64,000 nt of DNA from a virus (IMGVR_UViG_3300020469_000001:32001-96000), one strand, 5' to 3'; numbered from the stretch's first letter, positions 2,272 through 48,380 are shown. The notes: generated by a model not told the origin, from the sequence alone. Numbers and translations are program-made.

Positions 2272-4329
2272 TTAGCTACCTTTATAAGCAAATGCCCACT
2301 TAGAAGTTGCACCGTCAATTAAGTCAGTGAATCCTAATCTCTGAGAAGCCACTAGGACTCTTCTTTGATTAGCTACTTCGTAGTCAGATTCTATTGTAAC
2401 ACCTCTTAATCTTGGCATTACATAGTTTCTTGGGTATACAGCGATTGCGCCATATTTACCAGCTGCTTTAGTTGCGAATTCATCACACATGATTACTCTT
2501 GATCCGAATACTTGTCCGATTTCGCCTGATAGTTTTGTTGCCATGTCGCCAACTAGGTTAGCATCTTGGAACTCAGCATCTTCTAGTAAGTTGTAGTACA
2601 CGTCTTGTGAGACAATGTAAACAATTTCTGAAGGATTGATACCATATTTACCCATGTTCTTTCTCATGGCTAATAGGTCAGCTGCTGTAACTGCATCAGT
2701 TGCTGCGAATCCAGAAGCACCGTCTGAAGTTTCGTGGTTATCACCGTCAGCCATATTTAATAGCCCAGCAAACGCTCCTGATGAATAAACACCATTGTCG
2801 TGGTTACCAGCTAAAATAGCATTTTCGATACTTCTTGCGTGTGATCTTACCATTGACTCTCTAATTAAAGGAAGTATTGGCATGATTGCATCTTCTTCAG
2901 TCTCATTACCTAAGTATGATTGTGAAATCAACTTAACTGTTGAAAGTGTTCTTTCAGCTAAGTCTACACCACCGTAAGGTGAACCTAATGTGTCGCCTCT
3001 TTGGGCTAAGTTACCATGTGGTGAACTACCTGAAGCTGTTTGAGCTGAAGCAAATTCAGCATAACCAGCATCTGGCATGATTGGGATAATCATATTAGCA
3101 GAAGTCATAGCAATTTCTCTAAATAGAGGCGCTAAGACTAGCTCGTTTTGAATATCTCTTTCAATATTTGTTGAAACGATTTGCTCAAAGTCTGCTGAAG
3201 ATACTTGAACACCTGAGTGTTCGTTCACTTTTTGCATAATTGATTTTGAGTAGTCATTGTCCCATCCTTTCCCAGTAGCTAAACCAGCAAATTTTGCATC
3301 AATAATATCGTTTTCGAATTCCTTCTTCCAATTACCGTTTCCTTGTCTATCAGCAAAATGTCTTTTAGAATCACGAATACTCATGATTTCTTCAGATTTT
3401 TCTGCTAATTGTTTTTCAAGGGAATCGACAACTGTTTTCAGATCTTCATTCTTTTCATTGACTCTAGTTTCTAGGTCGTTCATTAGCTTTTCAGCTCCTG
3501 TTAAACCTGCTTCCACTATAGTCTTTGTTTCTTCCTGTTTTGCTTCTTGAGCAGCTTTTTCTTCAGCTTCTACTTGAGCTAGCTTTTCAGCCTGCTCTTG
3601 TACTTGCTTTACTTCAGCTGCCTTTGCTTCGGCTTGCTTCATTGCAATTTTAGTCGCAGTATCTTCTGCTACTTTTTTTGCAAATGCTTCAAGGTCGATT
3701 GAAGTTTCAGGAGATTTTCTTTCTTCTGACATATCAGTCTCCGTTGATGAGGATTTCTCCTCGCTTGGCTGCTCAATTTTAACAGCGTCTGCTGCTGCGG
3801 TTGAGTTAGCCTGTAAAATTTCTTTCTGGTAGCTTCTGTAATCTTCCATAGAATCAAATGATTTTGCTAATCCAAAGGTTGCCCCTTGGTTGCAAGGCAC
3901 TGAGACTACTGAAACTTCAAAAAGCTCCGCATCTTTTATTTTATATCCATCGGTTTCAGTCATATATTCTGAATCCTTGCATCTGAAACCAACAGAAAAT
4001 GCTCCAAGGACTCCATCTTTAACTAATTGAGTTACATCGCCGGCAGCTTTAGATATCTTTGCAGTTATCTCTAAGCCTTTATCGGTTACTTCTAAACCAC
4101 TGGCTCTGCCAATTGGTTTATTGTAATCATGGTTAAAAAGAATAATTGGATTACCTTTATAGTTTTCCAATCCGCCTTTCATCCACGCTTCTGATTCGAT
4201 AATATCTCCAGCTCTATCTAGTCCGTTTGTACTTGCAGACCCTTTGATATTAACTCCGCCATCATCAGTTTCACCTAATGATTTAAAAGTGCTAGTCCAT
4301 TGATATATCTTTTCGTTATTTTTTGACAT
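2272..4329 (-). CDS. HK97-type prohead protease fused in frame to the major capsid protein (internal MCP start probably 3732)
   Basis: N-terminal protease motifs (DRAGD, FNHD..PIG, FSVGF, ELFEVSVVSVP), then a coiled-coil delta domain and HK97-fold capsid; GGAG-N6-ATG at 3732. Confidence 0.92.
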   Translation of the reverse strand: MSKNNEKIYQWTSTFKSLGETDDGGVNIKGSASTNGLDRAGDIIESEAWMKGGLENYKGNPIILFNHDYNKPIGRASGLEVTDKGLEITAKISKAAGDVTQLVKDGVLGAFSVGFRCKDSEYMTETDGYKIKDAELFEVSVVSVPCNQGATFGLAKSFDSMEDYRSYQKEILQANSTAAADAVKIEQPSEEKSSSTETDMSEERKSPETSIDLEAFAKKVAEDTATKIAMKQAEAKAAEVKQVQEQAEKLAQVEAEEKAAQEAKQEETKTIVEAGLTGAEKLMNDLETRVNEKNEDLKTVVDSLEKQLAEKSEEIMSIRDSKRHFADRQGNGNWKKEFENDIIDAKFAGLATGKGWDNDYSKSIMQKVNEHSGVQVSSADFEQIVSTNIERDIQNELVLAPLFREIAMTSANMIIPIMPDAGYAEFASAQTASGSSPHGNLAQRGDTLGSPYGGVDLAERTLSTVKLISQSYLGNETEEDAIMPILPLIRESMVRSHARSIENAILAGNHDNGVYSSGAFAGLLNMADGDNHETSDGASGFAATDAVTAADLLAMRKNMGKYGINPSEIVYIVSQDVYYNLLEDAEFQDANLVGDMATKLSGEIGQVFGSRVIMCDEFATKAAGKYGAIAVYPRNYVMPRLRGVTIESDYEVANQRRVLVASQRLGFTDLIDGATSKWAFAYKGS

Positions 4330-11965: not shown

Positions 11966-11994
11966 ATTATATCAAATTACCAACCTGATGTCAA
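11966..11994 (-). promoter_or_regulatory. sigma70-type promoter
   Basis: TTGACA-N17-TATAAT. Confidence 0.75.
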
Positions 11995-11997
11995 GTA

Positions 11998-13782
11998 CTA
12001 TTTTCGTATGGTATAGATTTTTACAGGTTCTGACTTACCTTTTACAGTTACCTCGTCAAGAAACTCATAATCATAACCATCTACTAAACTGTGCTCAGAT
12101 ATAATTAAGTCAGCATCATATTCTTTACAGCTAGATTCTAGTCTAGCAGCCAGATTGACGCTATCACCAAGAACGCTGTAATCAAAGCGAGTGCTGCTGC
12201 CAAAGTTTCCAACGACACAGTCCCCGGTGTTGATTCCCGCTCCTGTATTAATCTCATCCAAGCCTTCTTCTCTGAGTTTTTCATTTAACTCCTCCAATGC
12301 CACTCTCATTTCGAGAGCTGCCTTTGTTGCATTTTCGACATGATTCTCGTCTGGACACGGCGCTCCCCAAAATGCCATGATGCAATCTCCCATATATTTG
12401 TCTATTGTTCCCCCATGCTTGAGAATAATCTCAGTCTGATTATCAAGGAAACGATTAATGAGGCTCGTAAGTCCTTGTGGATTCTTTTGGTATTTTTCCG
12501 AAATCGGGGTAAATCCTCGTATATCAGAAAAAAGAAAAGTGAGTCGTGAAGTTAACCCACCCAATCTCAGTAATGTTGGGTCGTCCTGTAATTTTTTTAC
12601 TAAGTCGGGACTAACGTATGTCCCAAATTGTTGTTTGATTCGAAGTTTCTGTTGATACTCCGATAGGAAACTCAGAAAGGTATGAATACTCCAAAAGAGA
12701 ACGGATATAATTACGATTCCACTAACGTCAAGCAAGTAAGAAGATTTATATAGATGCCAGGCTCCATATAAACTTCCTCCAGTTATCAGTAATAGTGCGG
12801 GAACGGAAAGCCAGACTGACCTTGATGCAAAAGCAAGTATTATCAGTGCTAGTAGTGTTGCGATGATTTCTGCTCCTGTAGCCCAAGTTGGTTGGCTAGG
12901 TGCGGTTCCTGTAATTAGATTGTGTAGAATGTTCGCTTGGATTTCGTGTGGGTATTTAGCCCCCGCAGGGGTCGGCACTGGGTTAGTTATACCCTCTGCA
13001 GTCGTGCCGAATATAACGAACGGAGCTTCTATTGGTTTCTTAAGAAACTCCAGTCCGCTTTGTTTGTAAAACTTCGTATTCCAATTTAAAAAGATACGAC
13101 CATTCGCATCTGTATTCATCAGTGGGTAGTTTGGGATTCTTATCCAATCAATACCTTCTGGTGTTGTTTTTAGCTGGTACGAAGGATCGTTTACGGCGAC
13201 TCTTAAGAGTTCCAAGGCGAAACTCGGGTAAAGTTTTGACTGCACGTTTACGACTAGGGGAATGCGACGAGTAACCCCGTCTATTTCCGGCGTAGCGGTT
13301 ACTACTCCGATTCCCTTTGTTTTTGACTCCAGCGTAGACGCGGTAGGTAAAATTCCTGGTAGTTCGAATAGCCATGGTAATGGGTCCTCTCCTAACTGAG
13401 CAGTACCTACATGAGGGTTTGTCCCAGTTACTTGTGTCGATGCTGCTGAAGCAAGGACTGTTGGTATGTATTGCATTCGCATAGCAAAGTAATTATCATA
13501 ATCTTTGCCACGAATGTCGGGGTTTGGCATCAAGATTGTAAAACCTGGTACGGCCTGTGTAGTAGTGATTAAGTCACCAAACACTGACCTAGGTAATGGC
13601 CATCCGCCATAAGTCTGTAGAAAATCTTCATCAAGATCAACTATCAGAATGTTCTCGTTCTGTACTGGTTCGGTATTCATGATTAAGTAGTCGTAACCAA
13701 TTAGTTCGACTCTTTGCATGACACCAGGATTCCATATAAGCAATCCCATAAACAGTACTATTGTGATAACTTTATTTAGCAC
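11998..13782 (-). CDS. CHASE2-domain membrane adenylate/guanylate cyclase (class III)
   Basis: CHASE2 (GGWPLPR, DGVTRRIPL, HEIQANIL), three TM helices, cyclase motifs FSDIRGFT, DKYMGDCIMAFWGAP and GDSVNLAARLES. Confidence 0.93.
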   Translation of the reverse strand: MLNKVITIVLFMGLLIWNPGVMQRVELIGYDYLIMNTEPVQNENILIVDLDEDFLQTYGGWPLPRSVFGDLITTTQAVPGFTILMPNPDIRGKDYDNYFAMRMQYIPTVLASAASTQVTGTNPHVGTAQLGEDPLPWLFELPGILPTASTLESKTKGIGVVTATPEIDGVTRRIPLVVNVQSKLYPSFALELLRVAVNDPSYQLKTTPEGIDWIRIPNYPLMNTDANGRIFLNWNTKFYKQSGLEFLKKPIEAPFVIFGTTAEGITNPVPTPAGAKYPHEIQANILHNLITGTAPSQPTWATGAEIIATLLALIILAFASRSVWLSVPALLLITGGSLYGAWHLYKSSYLLDVSGIVIISVLFWSIHTFLSFLSEYQQKLRIKQQFGTYVSPDLVKKLQDDPTLLRLGGLTSRLTFLFSDIRGFTPISEKYQKNPQGLTSLINRFLDNQTEIILKHGGTIDKYMGDCIMAFWGAPCPDENHVENATKAALEMRVALEELNEKLREEGLDEINTGAGINTGDCVVGNFGSSTRFDYSVLGDSVNLAARLESSCKEYDADLIISEHSLVDGYDYEFLDEVTVKGKSEPVKIYTIRK

Positions 13783-14318
13783 GATACATTTACGCCTGTA
13801 ATATGATGGTAATTAAAATCTCTGCATTCTGAAGCCTCTTCATACAAGTAAAAGTTTCTTATTATTACTGCTGCAAGAATCCAGTTTGTAAGCACCATTT
13901 GCTCCTCTTCTAAGTTAGCTGCTATAATTGGAGTTAATACAGATTTGTGTAGTAAAAATTCTGCAGCAGACGGCTTTTCCGGCAGTAAAAAGTTGGCTTC
14001 CTTTATGTGCGGGTTGTTTCTAGTAAACACATATGAAGTTGTCATGTCAACCGCATTGAGAATATAGTAAGCTCTTAGTGTTCTCTTAGTGGGTTCATTG
14101 TTTATCTTTATAAATCTAAGACGCTTTTTCTCAGCAGCTTCTATTTGAACAGAGTCTTGCTTCATCTGTTCATAGTTGAATGGAGTTTCAGGTAGTGTTA
14201 AATCTAAGCTATCCGCTTGATTGTTTGACGCTAATAGTAACATCGGCACCATTACCAACGACAACATTGTAAGCTTTGCCATCTTGTTCCAATATAATGT
14301 TATATCCAGTTTGTCCAT
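13776..14318 (-). CDS. Hypothetical exported/membrane protein (true start probably downstream of 14318)
   Basis: Signal-like hydrophobic segment; EANFLLP motif; overlaps the FecR-like gene. Confidence 0.55.
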   Translation of the reverse strand: MDKLDITLYWNKMAKLTMLSLVMVPMLLLASNNQADSLDLTLPETPFNYEQMKQDSVQIEAAEKKRLRFIKINNEPTKRTLRAYYILNAVDMTTSYVFTRNNPHIKEANFLLPEKPSAAEFLLHKSVLTPIIAANLEEEQMVLTNWILAAVIIRNFYLYEEASECRDFNYHHITGVNVSC

Positions 14319-15312
14319 TTATATCTAACCTTACACTTTGATTTACTTCTCGAATGAGAGTAAGAAACTCTGCATCTCCAAAAGTTGTAATCTGTGTGCT
14401 TGCATCTTGTCCGAATGTAGTACCTTTTAAATCTACAGGTGCTGCTCCAACGGATGCGAGTTCATTATTATCTAGTTCATCTACTGATTCTATTATTTCT
14501 AGTAGATCTTCCAGGAAGTTAGTTCCTAGGTAGTCTATGTCAAGTTCTCGAAAGTCTTCCTCTACTTCTAATAAGTCTACATCGAGCCCGTCGTAAGCGA
14601 GGTAGTCGATATCAAGAATATTAGTACCAGAGTCGTCACTTCCAGACGATCCCTCATTTTGTTGTATTTCTTCATTTTTCTTAGGTGGTGAGACAATCAA
14701 AAGATTGTCTATCAGATCTAGTGTTAAGTCGAGGATAACAGGTTTAGTAGGACTCTGTTCCCATACAGTTGTAACAGTAGATTGATACGGTTTATTTAGT
14801 ATTACCTGTCCTAAAGCAGTTGCTACTACAATCTCGCCAGAGGGCAGTCCGTTTGCATCTGGTAAGAGTATCACCAATGACTTACCGAACTCGTCAACGG
14901 TAACAGTAAAGTCTGTTCCTCGAATTGCGATTTGTGCTGTTGGTGTACTGATGTTGATATTCTGTTTGTTTATCTGTCCTATCTTACCAGTAATAAATCG
15001 AGCAGTGCCACTTGCAAATTGCATACTCATCTTTGACTTGTTTGGATTTGGGTCAAAGATTACTTCGTCTATAACAAGTTTGCTATGCTCTGTGAGTCGA
15101 ACTTGACTATCGTCTATGAATGTGATACCTAGTCGCCCATTAGCTGTACGCACATCATCCATTTGTTGAATGTCTTGTTCTAAAGTTGCAGGTAAGGTGT
15201 CATCTCGAATGACGGCACCTTGCCCGCGTAGTTCCGTGATTGCGCCTATATCAGCAAGAAGTGGATGTACCACCATCAGACTGAATAACACAGATGTTAC
15301 TGTTTGACGCAT
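14209..15312 (-). CDS. FecR-domain protein
   Basis: Signal peptide; D.VRT..G...I.F.D.S and TPTAQIAIRGTDF FecR motifs; acidic C-terminus. Confidence 0.85.
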   Translation of the reverse strand: MRQTVTSVLFSLMVVHPLLADIGAITELRGQGAVIRDDTLPATLEQDIQQMDDVRTANGRLGITFIDDSQVRLTEHSKLVIDEVIFDPNPNKSKMSMQFASGTARFITGKIGQINKQNINISTPTAQIAIRGTDFTVTVDEFGKSLVILLPDANGLPSGEIVVATALGQVILNKPYQSTVTTVWEQSPTKPVILDLTLDLIDNLLIVSPPKKNEEIQQNEGSSGSDDSGTNILDIDYLAYDGLDVDLLEVEEDFRELDIDYLGTNFLEDLLEIIESVDELDNNELASVGAAPVDLKGTTFGQDASTQITTFGDAEFLTLIREVNQSVRLDINGQTGYNIILEQDGKAYNVVVGNGADVTISVKQSSG

Positions 15313-15964
15313 CGCTCTCTATTTTTAACCAATCGAGTGCTAGTGTTGATTTTTGTTGTATTTCAATAGTATTTGTACTACCATTTAAATCCAAGTAAAA
15401 ATAACCTGCATCACTCGATGAGGCTCCTTGACCAGTTTTGGTCAATTCCATTGTATTACTATCTCCTAAGATATCCATATACGCAGTATAGTAGTCAGAG
15501 TCTATATCGAATGTTAAATCGTTACTGTCTCCGTCTAGTATTAGATCTAAGTCTAAATAACTTGCTCCTGCATTTTCACCGATGTCCCAATCAAAAACGT
15601 TTGAGCTACCTGTTACATCTACATTGATGTTTGCAAAGTCAACTGTATTTAGTCCTGTAGTATCCATAGAAAACTCGAATGTATTTGAATCTCCATCAAA
15701 TTCGAAGAAACCAGTAAAGTTTTCGCCTAATACACCGTCAGTTAGAAATTTATTTGAAGAACCAATCTGGTTAATATCCAATGTCCATGTACCACCGTTT
15801 AAGATAGCTTTTGTCATAGAACCGCTTGTTGCATCGTCACCACCAATAAGGTTGTTCGATCCTAGTTGCTCTAAGTCAATATTGACATTGTTTCCAGTTT
15901 GATCTATGTAAATTTCATTGTCTGCATATAAACCAAAGGATAGTAATAAAAGTAATATTCTCAT
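15251..15964 (-). CDS. Secreted curlin-like beta-repeat protein
   Basis: Signal peptide; repeated x.Q.G..N / GDSN units (IDQTGNN, LEQLGSNN, INQIGSSN, GDSN x3). Confidence 0.7.
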   Translation of the reverse strand: MRILLLLLSFGLYADNEIYIDQTGNNVNIDLEQLGSNNLIGGDDATSGSMTKAILNGGTWTLDINQIGSSNKFLTDGVLGENFTGFFEFDGDSNTFEFSMDTTGLNTVDFANINVDVTGSSNVFDWDIGENAGASYLDLDLILDGDSNDLTFDIDSDYYTAYMDILGDSNTMELTKTGQGASSSDAGYFYLDLNGSTNTIEIQQKSTLALDWLKIESDASNSNICVIQSDGGTSTSC

Positions 15965-16830
15965 TACTTCTCTCCCCAGTACTTCCAGTACCCTTTCTCT
16001 TTGCCGTCTTTTATCAATTGAACTACTGCAGTTTCAAGCGCTGCTTGTATTGCAATAGATTTACTTTCATTCATTGCAGTTCCGCTTTCAAACTCTACGA
16101 GCTTTGTGCCTTCTGCTATAAACCTAAAGAAGTCATTTGATACTCCGACAGAGAGTATTTTCTTTGACGTAAGGATTTCCATTAAGATCTCTCCTGTACT
16201 CACAGAAACTAGTCTTAATGAGACCACTACGGTATCCTCACGATATTGCTTGGAGTTACCAATGCCTAAATATCTAGCACCTATACCTCCTGTTAATAGA
16301 TTAGTGTTATAATCTACTATTCCCCCTTCAATGATTAATCCAGCAAACAGTAGTGGAAGCTGCTCGTCTTCATCATTAAAACTTTGTCTAGTCTGTCTTA
16401 TTAATTGTCTTTCTCTAGTTAAGTGGTCAAGGCCACCTCTTTCGACAACTTTGAAGAATCCAGACTGTTTGAGTGCTCTTATGAGGTATGTCTCGGGAGC
16501 CATAGTAACAGCAGTACTGAAACTAGCTATACCATCGACACTCTTTCTTTGTCCTGTTGAATCTGTAAATTTGTATACGGCCACCACGGGATATCGTGAT
16601 GGTTGTGGAATTGTTTTAATTGCATCTGTAACTGGCGTATTGATAATAGCATCTCCAGAAAAGCATTGCGCTTTTCCGATAATAGTTACAACATCTTTAT
16701 AGTCTTCGTCTGGATTTGTTAAGCAAGGTGACACATATTTGTAATGTGTAAAGTTTGCACAACTAGCCAGTAGGAAAACCGAAGTCGCCAATAGGGATTG
16801 TAATGACAGTCGTTTCACCAGTAGCCTCAT
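15964..16830 (-). CDS. csgG: Curli secretion channel CsgG-family lipoprotein
   Basis: Lipobox LASC; VAVYKFTD.TGQRK, FSTAVT, VVER.GL..L..ERQLIR and GGIGARYLGIG. Confidence 0.9.
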   Translation of the reverse strand: MRLLVKRLSLQSLLATSVFLLASCANFTHYKYVSPCLTNPDEDYKDVVTIIGKAQCFSGDAIINTPVTDAIKTIPQPSRYPVVAVYKFTDSTGQRKSVDGIASFSTAVTMAPETYLIRALKQSGFFKVVERGGLDHLTRERQLIRQTRQSFNDEDEQLPLLFAGLIIEGGIVDYNTNLLTGGIGARYLGIGNSKQYREDTVVVSLRLVSVSTGEILMEILTSKKILSVGVSNDFFRFIAEGTKLVEFESGTAMNESKSIAIQAALETAVVQLIKDGKEKGYWKYWGEK

Positions 16831-17257
16831 TAAATATGGTCATTGTAATTGATATACCATCTGATGTCCATGTAATCAGATTATCAAACAACATGAATGA
16901 TCCTTCCGATGCAGGGTTTTCTCCGAACAACTGGTCTACTAGCTGTCGAGATAACTGTGCGTATACTCTACTCTCAAAGTTCTTTATAAATCTTGCGAGA
17001 GTACTATTATTTTCCTCTCGTTCTGCGGCTTCTTTGAGTGCTTTAATTTCTGCGGCGATTGCCTCTTTTCTTGACATCTCTTGTGAGTCAATTGTAAGAT
17101 AGTGGCTAGATGTACCTACACCACTGAATGAAGGATTTTTAAATCCAAACTTTATTTCATCCGCGTTTAAGTCTGCTGCAATTGCTATAAAGCTTAATAT
17201 AAATAAAGCTCCTATAACACTATTTGCAACTCTGTTATTTAGTTTTCTTTCGTTCAT
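16763..17257 (-). CDS. csgF: Curli assembly component CsgF-like
   Basis: Signal peptide then F.FKNPSFSG.G; ESRVYAQLSRQL; directly upstream of csgG. Confidence 0.8.
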   Translation of the reverse strand: MNERKLNNRVANSVIGALFILSFIAIAADLNADEIKFGFKNPSFSGVGTSSHYLTIDSQEMSRKEAIAAEIKALKEAAEREENNSTLARFIKNFESRVYAQLSRQLVDQLFGENPASEGSFMLFDNLITWTSDGISITMTIFNEATGETTVITIPIGDFGFPTG

Positions 17258-17498
17258 TTTCTTTTAACTGTAAAACTGTGTCCAGTTTCTTTTGCAGTCG
17301 TATCATGTCATTATCCAACATTCTTATCTGGTCGATAAGTTGTAGTATGGTAATTTTCATTTCTTCGATTGCTGGGTCTATCTTCTCGGTCACTGTAGTC
17401 CATACGAAGTATACGAAATATCCAAGTCCAACCATTGCAACAACTGGAAATCCAAATTGTTGTATGGCATCAATCACGTCTTGCATCGATACTCCCAC
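17235..17498 (-). CDS. Small membrane protein (paralog of the next ORF)
   Basis: GFPVVA..GLGYF TM; LIDQIRMLDNDMIR. Confidence 0.65.
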   Translation of the reverse strand: MGVSMQDVIDAIQQFGFPVVAMVGLGYFVYFVWTTVTEKIDPAIEEMKITILQLIDQIRMLDNDMIRLQKKLDTVLQLKENERKKTK

Positions 17499-17766
17499 TT
17501 TCTACAAAGTTTTCTGCTCTTGCTATTTTTTCTAAGTCTGGTGCAAGTCCCAGCGCGGATGATACACTCATATCTATTTTAATCATATCATTGTTCATAA
17601 CTTTGATACGAGTAATTAACATCTTAGAGATTCCTCGAACTTCTTCTGTATCTCCAACAACGTCATCCATAATCTTTCTTATGATGAGAAATATAAAACC
17701 ACCCATAAACAGTGCTGCAGCGATAGGTGCTCCAACTTGTCCGATTACGTCAAATATCTCACTCAT
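17470..17766 (-). CDS. Small membrane protein
   Basis: GAPIAAALFMGGF TM; LITRIKVMNNDMIK. Confidence 0.65.
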   Translation of the reverse strand: MSEIFDVIGQVGAPIAAALFMGGFIFLIIRKIMDDVVGDTEEVRGISKMLITRIKVMNNDMIKIDMSVSSALGLAPDLEKIARAENFVESGSIDARRD

Positions 17767-18002
17767 AAGTACTTAATCATTTCTTGATTGATTGCCATAC
17801 ATCCAAACATGCCAAATAGTACAGTAACCTGTATAATACTTGCATAAGTAATTTGTCTCATTGGATGCATATCTGTTAACTTCTCTATCATGCTTTCTGA
17901 TGGCGATAGGTTAACTATTTGTAATGCTTTCCTAGAAGCCGATGCTTTCTCCGCATCCGCATCTATATGTTTCTTTTGGGTTGTTAAATCTGAATTCTTC
18001 AT
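17763..18002 (-). CDS. Hypothetical membrane protein
   Basis: 79 aa with a C-terminal TM. Confidence 0.55.
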   Translation of the reverse strand: MKNSDLTTQKKHIDADAEKASASRKALQIVNLSPSESMIEKLTDMHPMRQITYASIIQVTVLFGMFGCMAINQEMIKYL

Positions 18003-18249
18003 TTAGTCCGTCCGTGTGCCAATCAATAGTCATGCCTTCTAAATAAGGCGCAGAGTTAGGGTCTACCCTAAATCTAATCTTGCCCCAATCTATTACCAGA
18101 TCATCTGAATAATTTTTAGGGTTAAAAGCAAAAAGATACTCCATACCACCGCAGCCACCCCCAGTAATACCAAGTCTAAAAACAAAGTTGTCTTCTGCGC
18201 TCGCTTTCTGTATAAGTTTAGTATACGCCTCATTAGTAATTTCTATCAT
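17932..18249 (-). CDS. iscA: A-type Fe-S carrier (IscA/HesB family)
   Basis: GGGCGG.EY and F.NP....CGCGES. Confidence 0.88.
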   Translation of the reverse strand: MIEITNEAYTKLIQKASAEDNFVFRLGITGGGCGGMEYLFAFNPKNYSDDLVIDWGKIRFRVDPNSAPYLEGMTIDWHTDGLNEEFRFNNPKETYRCGCGESIGF

Positions 18250-18295
18250 CTATCTAATTTAAATAGTCTCCAAACATTTTGTATTCTGCTTGCTT

Positions 18296-18712
18296 TCATA
18301 AATTTGTGTATTTTTCTGAACATTTATCCTCCCAGTTCTGAATAGCCTTTCTTATTGCGTCTTCGGCTAGAACTGAGCAGTGAATCTTTATTGGCGGCAA
18401 CTGTAGTGCCTCGGCAATATCTTTGTTCTTAATTTCTTTTGCTTCTTCTATAGTAAGTCCTTTTAACATATCTACAAACATTGTAGAAGACGCGATAGCT
18501 GAACCGCATCCATATGTTTTAAATTTTACATCAATGATTTTTTCTTGTTCGTCAAGTTTAAGTTGTAACTTCATGACATCACCACAAGCGGGTGCTCCTG
18601 TCATTCCTGTAGCTATATCGGGGTCGTTCGGGTCAAAACGGCCTACGCTAAATTGCTTAGGACTGTTCAGTACTCCTTCGAACCTTTCGATAACTTCTTT
18701 ACTATATGCCAA
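18296..18712 (-). CDS. iscU: Fe-S scaffold IscU
   Basis: GAPACGDVM, FKTYGCGSAIASS and LPPIKIHCSVLAEDAI. Confidence 0.95.
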   Translation of the reverse strand: MAYSKEVIERFEGVLNSPKQFSVGRFDPNDPDIATGMTGAPACGDVMKLQLKLDEQEKIIDVKFKTYGCGSAIASSTMFVDMLKGLTIEEAKEIKNKDIAEALQLPPIKIHCSVLAEDAIRKAIQNWEDKCSEKYTNL

Positions 18713-19370: not shown

Positions 19371-19399
19371 ATTATACCAAATTTTAATCCTCGTGTCAA
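19371..19399 (-). promoter_or_regulatory. sigma70-type promoter for terS (nearly leaderless)
   Basis: TTGACA-N17-TATAAT ending 7 nt before the ATG. Confidence 0.75.
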
Positions 19400-46673: not shown

Positions 46674-47053
46674 TGGCTGGGGGAATATATAACGAAACAT
46701 ATTTTAAGAACTACCCTGAAGAAAAAGAAAGGGAAGGAATACTGTATGGTATTGTATTGGTAAATATGAAAACATGGGAACGAGAAACTATAAAAGTAGG
46801 CATCGCAAAAGGAAGAACCTTCAAAGACGCAGTACGAAGAGGGCGTGGATTTACAAACTACGACATTCGGATTCAGAGACTGTGGCAGGGGAATCTATAC
46901 GATTGTTGGAGATTCGAGCAAAAACTACACAACCAGTTTCAGAAAGATAGACATAAAACGGAGCATAAATTTGGCGGACATACGGAGTGTTTCTCAATGG
47001 ACAGCAAAATCTTGGAGGTATTTCCGAAGAAGAATGAGATATTTAGGGATTAG
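46673..47053 (+). CDS. GIY-YIG/T5orf172-like protein
   Basis: LY...KVGI...EQKLH...FGGHTECF. Confidence 0.65.
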   Translation: MAGGIYNETYFKNYPEEKEREGILYGIVLVNMKTWERETIKVGIAKGRTFKDAVRRGRGFTNYDIRIQRLWQGNLYDCWRFEQKLHNQFQKDRHKTEHKFGGHTECFSMDSKILEVFPKKNEIFRD

Positions 47054-48380
47054 CGAGGGCTTTCACAATGCAGCATACGCTGTAGTGGAAGGAGATAAGG
47101 TTATCTACGCAACAGAAGTAGAGAGAATAACTCGTGTAAAAAATGATAAAACAATACCAGATTTTCATTTCAACACATTACAGAGTAAATTTAATTATGA
47201 TGAAACAATTTTTTATGAACATACTGATATCAAGAATGCGAGACGAGACATGTACAGAATGGCAAAAACAACGCCGTGCAGACCGTATACTCACAGAAAT
47301 ATATTTCACCATGAAAGCCATTACGCCGCTGCTTATTTTTCTGCTCCTTTCACTCCTGACAGCACGGTTGTAATCGATGCTATTGGAGAGTTTGATACAG
47401 CAACAATATGGGTAGAGGGTAAGAAAGTATGGTCAAAGCAATACCCATGGTCACTAGGATTATTCTATAGTGCAATCACGAAACGAATAGGACTAAAACC
47501 AAACGAAGATGAGTATATTACTATGGGCATGGCTGCCTTTGGGGATATATCTATAGATATGCAGGAAGAAATACACCAAAATAATCACAAAGGTTTTAAG
47601 AGACGTAAGTGGTTTTGGCACACTCCTGAAGATATAGCTGCGTCAGCACAAGCTCATCTAGAAACAGAGCTACTAGACATCTTTGCAAAAGCAAGGAAGT
47701 ATGGACCAAATGTAGCGTATGCTGGTGGGGTTGCGTTAAACTGTGTGGCAAACAGTAAGATAAGACCTATGTTTGACAATATGTGGATATTTCCAAACCC
47801 AGGCGATGCAGGTAGTGCGTTAGGTTGCGTACTTGCAAAAACTAAACAGAAAATAAAATTCGAAGACACTTTCCTAGGACATGATATAACAAGAAGTATC
47901 AATCCTAAGTTAGTAGTCGATACACTACTTAAAAGAAAAGTAGTAGGAGTAGCAAATGGAAAAGCAGAATTTGGGCCTCGTGCCCTCGGGAATCGCAGTT
48001 TGCTTGGTGATGTTCGTTATGATATTAAAGACACAGTCAATAATATTAAGCGAAGACAAAAGTTTCGTCCTTTTGCTCCCGCAATCCTCGAGGAGTATTA
48101 TGAAAAATATTTTGAAGGATACGGAAACGAATACATGCAATTCGTTGCAAAAGCGAAACACGACTACAGTTCTGTCACACACATTGATGGAACCTCAAGA
48201 GTCCAGGTGGTCAAGCCTAGCTCTAAGTCAGCACTGCGACCTATACTAGAAGAATATTACGAGAGAACAGGAGTACCTATGTTGCTCAATACAAGTTTGA
48301 ATATTAAAGGCGAACCTATGGTTAATACTGTGGAAGACGCTGATAGATTTCAAAGCAACTACGGAGTGAGAGTATTTTGA
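47034..48380 (+). CDS. Carbamoyltransferase (NodU/CmcH family)
   Basis: LGI..GFHNAA, HHESH, DAIGE, GGVALN, EFGPRALGNRS, FRPFAP and LNTSLN. Confidence 0.92.
   Translation: MRYLGISEGFHNAAYAVVEGDKVIYATEVERITRVKNDKTIPDFHFNTLQSKFNYDETIFYEHTDIKNARRDMYRMAKTTPCRPYTHRNIFHHESHYAAAYFSAPFTPDSTVVIDAIGEFDTATIWVEGKKVWSKQYPWSLGLFYSAITKRIGLKPNEDEYITMGMAAFGDISIDMQEEIHQNNHKGFKRRKWFWHTPEDIAASAQAHLETELLDIFAKARKYGPNVAYAGGVALNCVANSKIRPMFDNMWIFPNPGDAGSALGCVLAKTKQKIKFEDTFLGHDITRSINPKLVVDTLLKRKVVGVANGKAEFGPRALGNRSLLGDVRYDIKDTVNNIKRRQKFRPFAPAILEEYYEKYFEGYGNEYMQFVAKAKHDYSSVTHIDGTSRVQVVKPSSKSALRPILEEYYERTGVPMLLNTSLNIKGEPMVNTVEDADRFQSNYGVRVF

Follow-up and report, generated by a model that had tools for sequence, protein, structure and literature searches.

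The 64,000-nucleotide stretch analysed here (IMGVR_UViG_3300020469_000001:32001-96000, hereafter the window) comes from a virus and contains a cassette of nine closely spaced minus-strand genes running from 18002 to 11998. Based on open reading frame (ORF) reading and searches of Pfam, NCBIfam and PHROGs, these genes encode the curli secretion proteins CsgF and CsgG, a curlin-like repeat protein, a FecR-domain protein, a CHASE2 adenylate cyclase, and four small membrane or exported proteins designated g0, g1, g2 and g7 (Table 1). Adjoining genes overlap by 1 to about 110 nucleotides, and signal-peptide-like N-terminal segments are found in CsgF, CsgG, the repeat protein, the FecR protein and g7. 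An original prediction made from this sequence had described eight of the genes as one overlapping operon in a T5-like phage. All eight lie on the minus strand where that prediction had placed them, and each of the named domains (PF10614, PF03783, PF04773, CHASE2 and Guanylate_cyc) was matched by its hidden Markov model, although a ninth conserved small membrane gene, g0, had been overlooked. The cassette belongs to the published viral type VIII secretion (curli) region of pelagiphages, with its FecR protein and cyclase, carried here by a marine T5-like phage; in our judgement the chances are about even that it works as an export half and a sensing half.

Table 1. Features of the cassette and its flanks, with positions counted from the first letter of the window (aa, amino acids)
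Feature	Position	Strand	Evidence
g0, 79-aa small protein with C-terminal membrane helix	17763-18002	-	conserved motif; no Pfam family
g1, 98-aa single-pass membrane protein with N-terminal helix and coiled-coil tail	17470-17766	-	phrog_18771, E 2e-22
g2, 87-aa paralogue of g1	17235-17498	-	phrog_18771, E 3e-26
CsgF homologue with signal peptide	16763-17257	-	PF10614, E 3e-19; phrog_35372, E 6e-35
CsgG outer-membrane lipoprotein, pore subunit	15964-16830	-	PF03783, E 4e-49
Curlin-like secreted beta-solenoid repeat protein, 237 aa	15251-15964	-	hhalign to HTVC008M gp018; AlphaFold2 model
Exported FecR-domain protein, 367 aa	14209-15312	-	PF04773, E 2e-11; phrog_37870 over full length, E 4e-71
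g7, exported or membrane protein, 180 aa, remotely DUF5658-like	13776-14318	-	slot family; signal peptide
CHASE2 class IIIb adenylate cyclase, 594 aa	11998-13782	-	CHASE2, E 5e-32; Guanylate_cyc, E 9e-21
IscU and IscA-type Fe-S assembly protein	17932-18712	-	NifU_N, E 8e-40 (IscU); E 1e-14 (IscA); directly upstream of cassette
Sigma-70-type promoter TTGACA-17-TATAAT with TG	19371-19399	-	12/12 consensus matches
Second perfect TTGACA-17-TATAAT promoter with TG extension	11966-11994	-	four bases past cyclase stop codon

The identification of CsgG and CsgF stands on profile matches far above the family cut-offs. CsgG matches PF03783 with 167 bits (cut-off 20.8), the NCBIfam CsgG model with E 1.5e-46, which is under its equivalog cut-off, and the solved E. 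coli CsgG structures with E 2e-42. It has a lipobox (LASC), and its constriction loop, one residue longer than that of E. coli, keeps F56 but not Y51 or N55. CsgF matches PF10614 with 69.8 bits (cut-off 25.8) and keeps the N-terminal pore-binding motif FxFxNPxFxG, read here as KFGFKNPSFSG; it gave no sequence match to solved CsgF. Thus both the CsgF and the CsgG lipoprotein of the original prediction are borne out. No match to CsgE (PF10627) was found at E 0.1 across the complete phage genome.

The curlin-like nature of the repeat protein is less obvious from Pfam, because its Curlin_rpt match (E 0.03, 14.6 bits) is under the cut-off of 20.7. However, the profile of its family aligns with the curlin region of gp018 from Pelagibacter phage HTVC008M, a protein that itself passes the Curlin_rpt cut-off, with an hhalign probability of 97% (E 4.5e-11). 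The AlphaFold2 model of the repeat protein (predicted local distance difference test score, pLDDT, of 79.7) is an all-beta solenoid. When this model was compared with 48,161 chains using VIA-align 2, Pontibacter CsgA (8c50) ranked second among the structural matches and had the highest identity of them (Z 17.0, root-mean-square deviation 9.0 Å, 195 residues, 20% identity). Foldseek returned nothing under E 1e-3 for the same model against the PDB, and CsgA was not among the hits when the profile of the solenoid family was run against PDB sequences. The protein is strongly acidic, with 38 D+E and 6 K+R residues, and has two invariant C-terminal cysteines. Judged by its sequence profile and predicted model, the repeat protein is probably a genuine but distant curlin relative, as had been proposed.

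The FecR protein matches PF04773 with 44.6 bits (cut-off 24) and consists of a signal peptide, a FecR domain (residues ~20-200), an acidic helical linker and a C-terminal beta domain. Bacterial matches are confined to residues 21-196, and the linker and C-terminal domain have no bacterial match. The sole hydrophobic segment of the protein is N-terminal and signal-like, and the Pfam FecR domain begins near residue 50. With no part in the cytoplasm, the protein does not qualify as an anti-sigma factor. That role is further ruled out by the lack of a partner sigma factor, no sigma-70 region 2 (Sigma70_r2) having been found in the complete phage genome. The absence of CsgE and of an extracytoplasmic function (ECF) sigma factor, which had been noted for the window, thus extends to the whole genome. 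The C-terminus was also considered as a curlin-like repeat, and this was not supported (hhalign probability 1.5%).

The cyclase contains both a CHASE2 domain (PF05226, 112 bits) and a Guanylate_cyc domain (PF00211, 74.7 bits). In its predicted topology, a single membrane helix is followed by the CHASE2 domain in the periplasm, then by some three further helices, and finally by the catalytic domain in the cytoplasm; the hydrophobic segments lie at residues 4-23 and at 298-374, the latter after CHASE2. The catalytic domain is closest to CyaB of P. aeruginosa (3r5g, E 3.5e-38), and alignment with CyaB assigns metal-binding residues D420 and D466, adenine-specifying residues K462 and S536, and transition-state residues N543 and R547. 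All six are present, in agreement with the intact class III motifs claimed earlier, and they are kept in three phage lineages and in the aligned bacterial homologues except for two columns in Methylophilales phage Melnitz, which probably reflect an alignment shift. The predicted product of the enzyme is cyclic AMP (cAMP). Within a lineage, the periplasmic CHASE2 part is only 45% identical whereas the catalytic part is 80% identical, and this faster evolution of the CHASE2 part is the pattern expected of a sensing domain or surface. The best 120 matches to the cyclase are all viral and at least 83% identical.

The remaining four proteins of the cassette are small. As originally proposed, g1 is a paralogue of g2 (26% identity, E 4e-12); it is also homologous to gp011 and gp012 of HTVC008M. 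The label 'HK' (histidine kinase) given to such proteins in the literature is rejected for g1 and g2, which have no kinase domain and are only 87-98 residues long. The nearest named ESM Atlas clusters of g2 are YvrJ (0.88) and Holin_BhlA (0.86), and these serve as leads only. The overlooked protein g0 has one hydrophobic segment (residues 51-72) and a motif, LQVVNLSPSE..HPMKQIT..IIQV, that is present in loci related to that of the window, which we refer to as the T5-like lineage, and also in a second lineage described below, where it lies between the small membrane gene and csgF. On this sequence pattern, g0 is a conserved, small, tail-anchored member of the cassette in both lineages.

The slot between the FecR and cyclase genes is filled in the window by g7, the likely start of which is the Met codon at 14282. 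Members of the g7 family evolve fast, fill this slot in nearly all loci of the T5-like lineage, and share a signal peptide and an LDxxTT...E.NP motif. Relatives of g7 match PF18902 below the cut-off (E 1.5e-4 to 0.02), the nearest named ESM Atlas cluster is DUF5658 (0.89), and no curlin repeats were found in g7 with Pfam. In the myophages the same slot holds a curlin or PA14 protein, with curlin repeats in HTVC008M and Melnitz. In two loci of the T5-like lineage (L024 and L025) the slot is enlarged to 0.9-1.3 kb and holds a g7-like gene together with two to three extra small ORFs of no known family. The FecR-cyclase slot is a hot spot for gene gain.

The virus record is complete, with 105,272 bp and direct terminal repeats. 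Its TerL is 47-48% identical to those of T5-like phages of Pectobacterium, Serratia and Vibrio, and its DNA polymerase A (PolA) is 45-46% identical to those of T5-like phages of enterobacteria. By these comparisons the phage backbone is T5-like, as the original prediction had stated. At the nucleotide level, the cassette matched none of 50,697 phage records.

A region of this kind has been reported before. Wittmers et al. (2022; PMC9599517) found the full region in two groups of SAR11 phages, the HTVC023P-type podophages and the pelagimyophages, in the order 'HK', CsgF, CsgG, CsgA/B, FecR, often a second CsgA/B, and adenylate cyclase; every one of the 65 GOV2 stations yielded it, as did metatranscriptomes, and its transfer between phage families was inferred. 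Thus the coupling of curli genes to FecR and a cyclase is not new, although that paper never names CHASE2 and assigns iron regulation to FecR. Only csgFG is treated by Buchholz et al. (2022; PMC9004378), and the words 'cyclase' and 'FecR' are not in their text. The gene order of the window is matched by gp011-gp019 of HTVC008M and by gp97-gp104 of Melnitz. Our literature search found no paper tying CsgG to T5-like marine phages. Since HTVC023P-type genomes average 58.8 kb, the 105-kb phage studied here is not of that type.

Relatives of the FecR protein were found on at least 497 viral contigs, and proteins matching the cyclase number in the thousands. Among the 80 viral loci fetched from these FecR-bearing contigs, the gene order is kept in every one (80/80), wherever the contig allows, and the cyclase is present in 59 of the 63 loci that have at least 2.3 kb downstream of FecR. 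In the T5-like lineage the cassette is preceded by IscU and IscA and followed by TerL, and the FecR proteins are 57-95% identical to the window copy. In the second lineage (L044-L083), FecR and CsgG are about 58-60% identical to those of the window while the cyclase is only about 33% identical, which indicates that the cyclase of this lineage has evolved much faster. Second-lineage loci have one small membrane gene, usually no slot gene, and a ribonucleotide reductase gene downstream. Their virion protein has weak podophage matches only, and the lineage is probably, although this is not proven, the published HTVC023P-type podophage kind. The IscU and IscA genes are kept in loci of the T5-like lineage and are not in the myophage or second-lineage cassettes.

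A quick maximum-likelihood tree was built from 17 viral and 30 alphaproteobacterial cyclases, and in it a branch with a support of 100 (Shimodaira-Hasegawa-like approximate likelihood-ratio test, SH-aLRT) sets all the viral sequences apart. Among these, the myophages are the first to branch off, and the T5-like lineage is sister to the second lineage (support 94). The stem branch of the second-lineage cyclases is very long, at 1.96 substitutions per site. These results extend the published picture of a single origin and cross-family transfer to a third phage architecture. The presence of the intact block in a third unrelated architecture, together with the single origin of the viral cyclases, strengthens the case for selection on the whole block.

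The sensing half has counterparts in bacteria. In a sample of 301 alphaproteobacterial genomes, a homologue of the cyclase (35-43% identity) was found in 105 and a FecR-domain match in 103, and in at least 26 of the 105 genomes a FecR match lies within 3 kb of the CHASE2-cyclase homologue, where a rough chance expectation is less than one. In one such locus, a 329-aa FecR protein is encoded divergently from a CHASE2 cyclase of 721 aa, which shares 35% identity with the phage enzyme over its full length, and TolC-like genes adjoin the pair. In Alphaproteobacteria the FecR domain also often heads giant secreted-type proteins. One with RTX repeats beside a TolC-like gene (L124, G088:C1) and another with Calx-beta and FG-GAP repeats (L125, G007:C1) each lie about 15 kb from a CHASE2 cyclase, and in the latter locus an AlgE-like outer-membrane barrel follows right after the cyclase, reminiscent of nsrA-cyaK of S. 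meliloti.

Similar pairs are known from the literature. LysM-FecR proteins form operons with CHASE2 histidine kinases in Burkholderiales and P. aeruginosa (PMC5192318), and in S. meliloti the FecR-domain gene SMc02177 adjoins the gene for the CHASE2 cyclase CyaD1 (SMc02176) (PMC5192318, PMC5498481). Also in S. meliloti, a plant protein signal reaches CHASE2 cyclases by way of NsrA, an outer-membrane barrel (PMC13001267). In the five alphaproteobacterial csgFG loci examined, the CsgG proteins of which are 38-44% identical in alignments, neither FecR nor the cyclase was found within 10 kb, and no CsgG was found in the five genomes with the best FecR matches. Thus the expected co-occurrence of FecR and cyclase genes with csgFG holds for 59 of 63 viral loci and for none of the five bacterial ones. 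Because FecR-CHASE2 pairs stand apart from csgFG in the genomes examined, the phage cassette joins two bacterial modules.

How might the cassette work? CsgG and CsgF would form an outer-membrane pore in the infected cell, and this pore would export the acidic curlin-like solenoid to the cell surface. The FecR protein and the CHASE2 cyclase would be a sensor pair, acquired as a unit from bacteria, that senses the condition of either the envelope or the secretion system and responds by making cAMP in the cytoplasm, and g0, g1, g2 and g7 may be accessory inner-membrane parts. We infer secretion of the solenoid, contact between FecR and CHASE2 and an effect on the cell from the predicted properties of the proteins; likewise, the adjacency of the genes suggests that their products may talk to each other. 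The original prediction went as far as a trans-envelope signalling device. In its favour, the genes travel together, FecR-CHASE2 pairing is recurrent in bacteria, and NsrA offers an analogy. By that analogy a trans-envelope sensor is plausible, while the sensing of contact or superinfection, also suggested earlier, is pure conjecture.

Several observations weigh against such coupled export and sensing. Four of the 63 cassettes retain FecR without a cyclase, and SMc02177 of S. meliloti is not needed for signal perception. No cyclic nucleotide monophosphate (cNMP)-binding domain (PF00027) was found in the phage, nor in 39 of 41 Pelagibacter-family genomes (two of the 41 have one), a family to which the host assignment is weak; the cAMP signal would therefore be one without a known receiver. 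The absence of CsgE leaves the route of the substrate to the pore unexplained. The AlphaFold2 model of the FecR protein, built from a 15-row alignment, has a pLDDT of 34.8 and allows no structural reading of the C-terminal domain. Finally, since the pair is not near the examined bacterial csgFG loci, the coupling is specific to viruses and has no bacterial model. In a more ambitious version, which we consider unlikely, the phage would bring a self-contained envelope-to-cytoplasm second-messenger system to a host without cAMP signalling of its own. Here the FecR-CHASE2 pair would be coupled to the state of the pore or fibre, and an unrecognised receiver of phage or host origin would read the cAMP, for instance so as to schedule late functions or to react to neighbours or competing phages.

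Three other explanations deserve consideration, and each of them leaves conserved parts of the cassette unexplained. The first is that the cassette only builds fibres: curli-like fibres would serve aggregation ('sibling capture') or protect against superinfection, and the part of FecR and the cyclase would be to regulate expression (Zaragoza-Solas 2020, Wittmers 2022). CsgG, CsgF and a curlin-like substrate are indeed all present and conserved, and the myophage copies have a second, bona fide curlin-repeat protein; in the T5-like lineage, however, the second curlin gene is replaced by one for an unrelated small protein. Moreover, Buchholz et al. saw no clumping in Melnitz infections (PMC9004378), the cyclase is not a transcription factor but an enzyme of the inner membrane that carries a sensor domain in the periplasm, and no cAMP-responsive regulator was found in the phage or its likely host. 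We therefore regard fibre building alone as improbable, to much the same degree as the self-contained messenger system.

More doubtful still is a role in lysis timing, in which CsgG and CsgF, with the holin-like small proteins, would be a gated secretin or pinholin that controls progeny release (PMC9004378). Although g1 and g2 are small, span the membrane once and have the holin-like YvrJ and BhlA families as nearest named look-alikes, with weak matches to holin PHROGs (E 0.04-0.06), the look-alike scores are under the level of more than a lead. The flanking genes contain no endolysin or spanin domain, CsgG resides in the outer membrane, where holins do not act, and a conserved exported solenoid and a sensor cyclase would be left unexplained. 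Least probable of all, following an idea of Wittmers et al. (2022), is an ungated uptake channel for nutrients, cofactors or iron compounds sensed by FecR, since the missing CsgE, the allusion of the FecR name to iron and the iron-sulfur (Fe-S) genes immediately upstream, probably on the same transcript, are countered by a FecR protein without a cytoplasmic anti-sigma part in a genome without sigma-70 region 2, by the restriction of IscU and IscA to the T5-like lineage, and by a conserved secreted solenoid for which uptake has no need.

Concerning transcription, the promoter upstream of IscU is likely, from its sequence, to be the start of a transcript through IscU, IscA and the cassette, and no convincing terminator was found on the minus strand between this promoter (19399-19371) and 11998. 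The second promoter (11994-11966) heads a run of small basic ORFs towards terL. Elsewhere in the window, the N-terminal part of a 685-aa ORF (2272-4329, minus strand) resembles head maturation protease families and its full length resembles major head protein families, which suggests a fused protease and capsid gene. A Nol-like carbamoyltransferase gene (46845-48380, plus strand; phrog_1601, E 2e-83) lies in the replication region as an auxiliary metabolic gene.

As for the host, the sole match to the FecR protein in a cellular genome is on a 14.6-kb contig (NZJW01000021.1) of Candidatus Pelagibacter sp. MED1116, a metagenome-assembled genome. This contig is made up of the phage genes, spanning IscU to the cyclase, most of them 70-81% identical to those of the window, and no other cyclase or CsgG was detected in that genome. 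The contig has the look of phage sequence that was binned with the bacterium, which makes it weaker as host evidence. Thus there are hints, but no proof, that Pelagibacter is the host.

The cassette ranks among the most widespread accessory gene blocks of marine phages, and the pre-existing bacterial FecR-CHASE2 pair, together with the lack of a canonical cAMP receptor visible in the phage or its likely host, narrows the experimental targets. Among known systems, FecIRA-type signalling shares with the cassette only the periplasmic FecR domain (PF04773); unlike FecIRA, the phage has no cytoplasmic anti-sigma domain, no membrane anchor beyond the signal peptide and no ECF sigma factor. The bacterial FecR-CHASE2 pairs are closer, in that they likewise place an exported FecR-domain protein beside a membrane sensor with a periplasmic CHASE2 domain. 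Those examined, however, are not beside csgFG as in the phage, the phage FecR protein has an acidic linker and C-terminal domain of its own, and bacterial systems have a Crp-type receiver (Clr), of which none was found in the phage. With the curli system of E. coli (CsgBAC and CsgDEFG), the cassette shares CsgG, the CsgF motif and a putative curlin-like solenoid substrate. Unlike the E. coli system, it lacks CsgE, and neither CsgC nor CsgD was seen; its CsgG constriction is altered, its substrate is far more acidic and ends with a cysteine pair, and it is coupled to FecR and a cyclase.

The closest relative is the viral type VIII secretion region, represented by HTVC008M, the proteins of which are 32-48% identical to those of the window. 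Both have small membrane proteins, CsgF, CsgG, a curlin-like protein, FecR, a slot gene and a cyclase in the same order. The published region is carried by 59-kb podophages or T4-like myophages, whereas the one described here is on a 105-kb T5-like phage; its slot holds a second curlin gene, which is frequent but not universal, or a PA14 gene, whereas that of the window holds the 180-aa DUF5658-like g7; and, unlike the published region, the cassette of the window has g0 upstream of g1 and IscU and IscA further upstream. What is new in this cassette is the T5-like backbone as a third lineage of carriers and the DUF5658-like gene in place of the second curlin gene.

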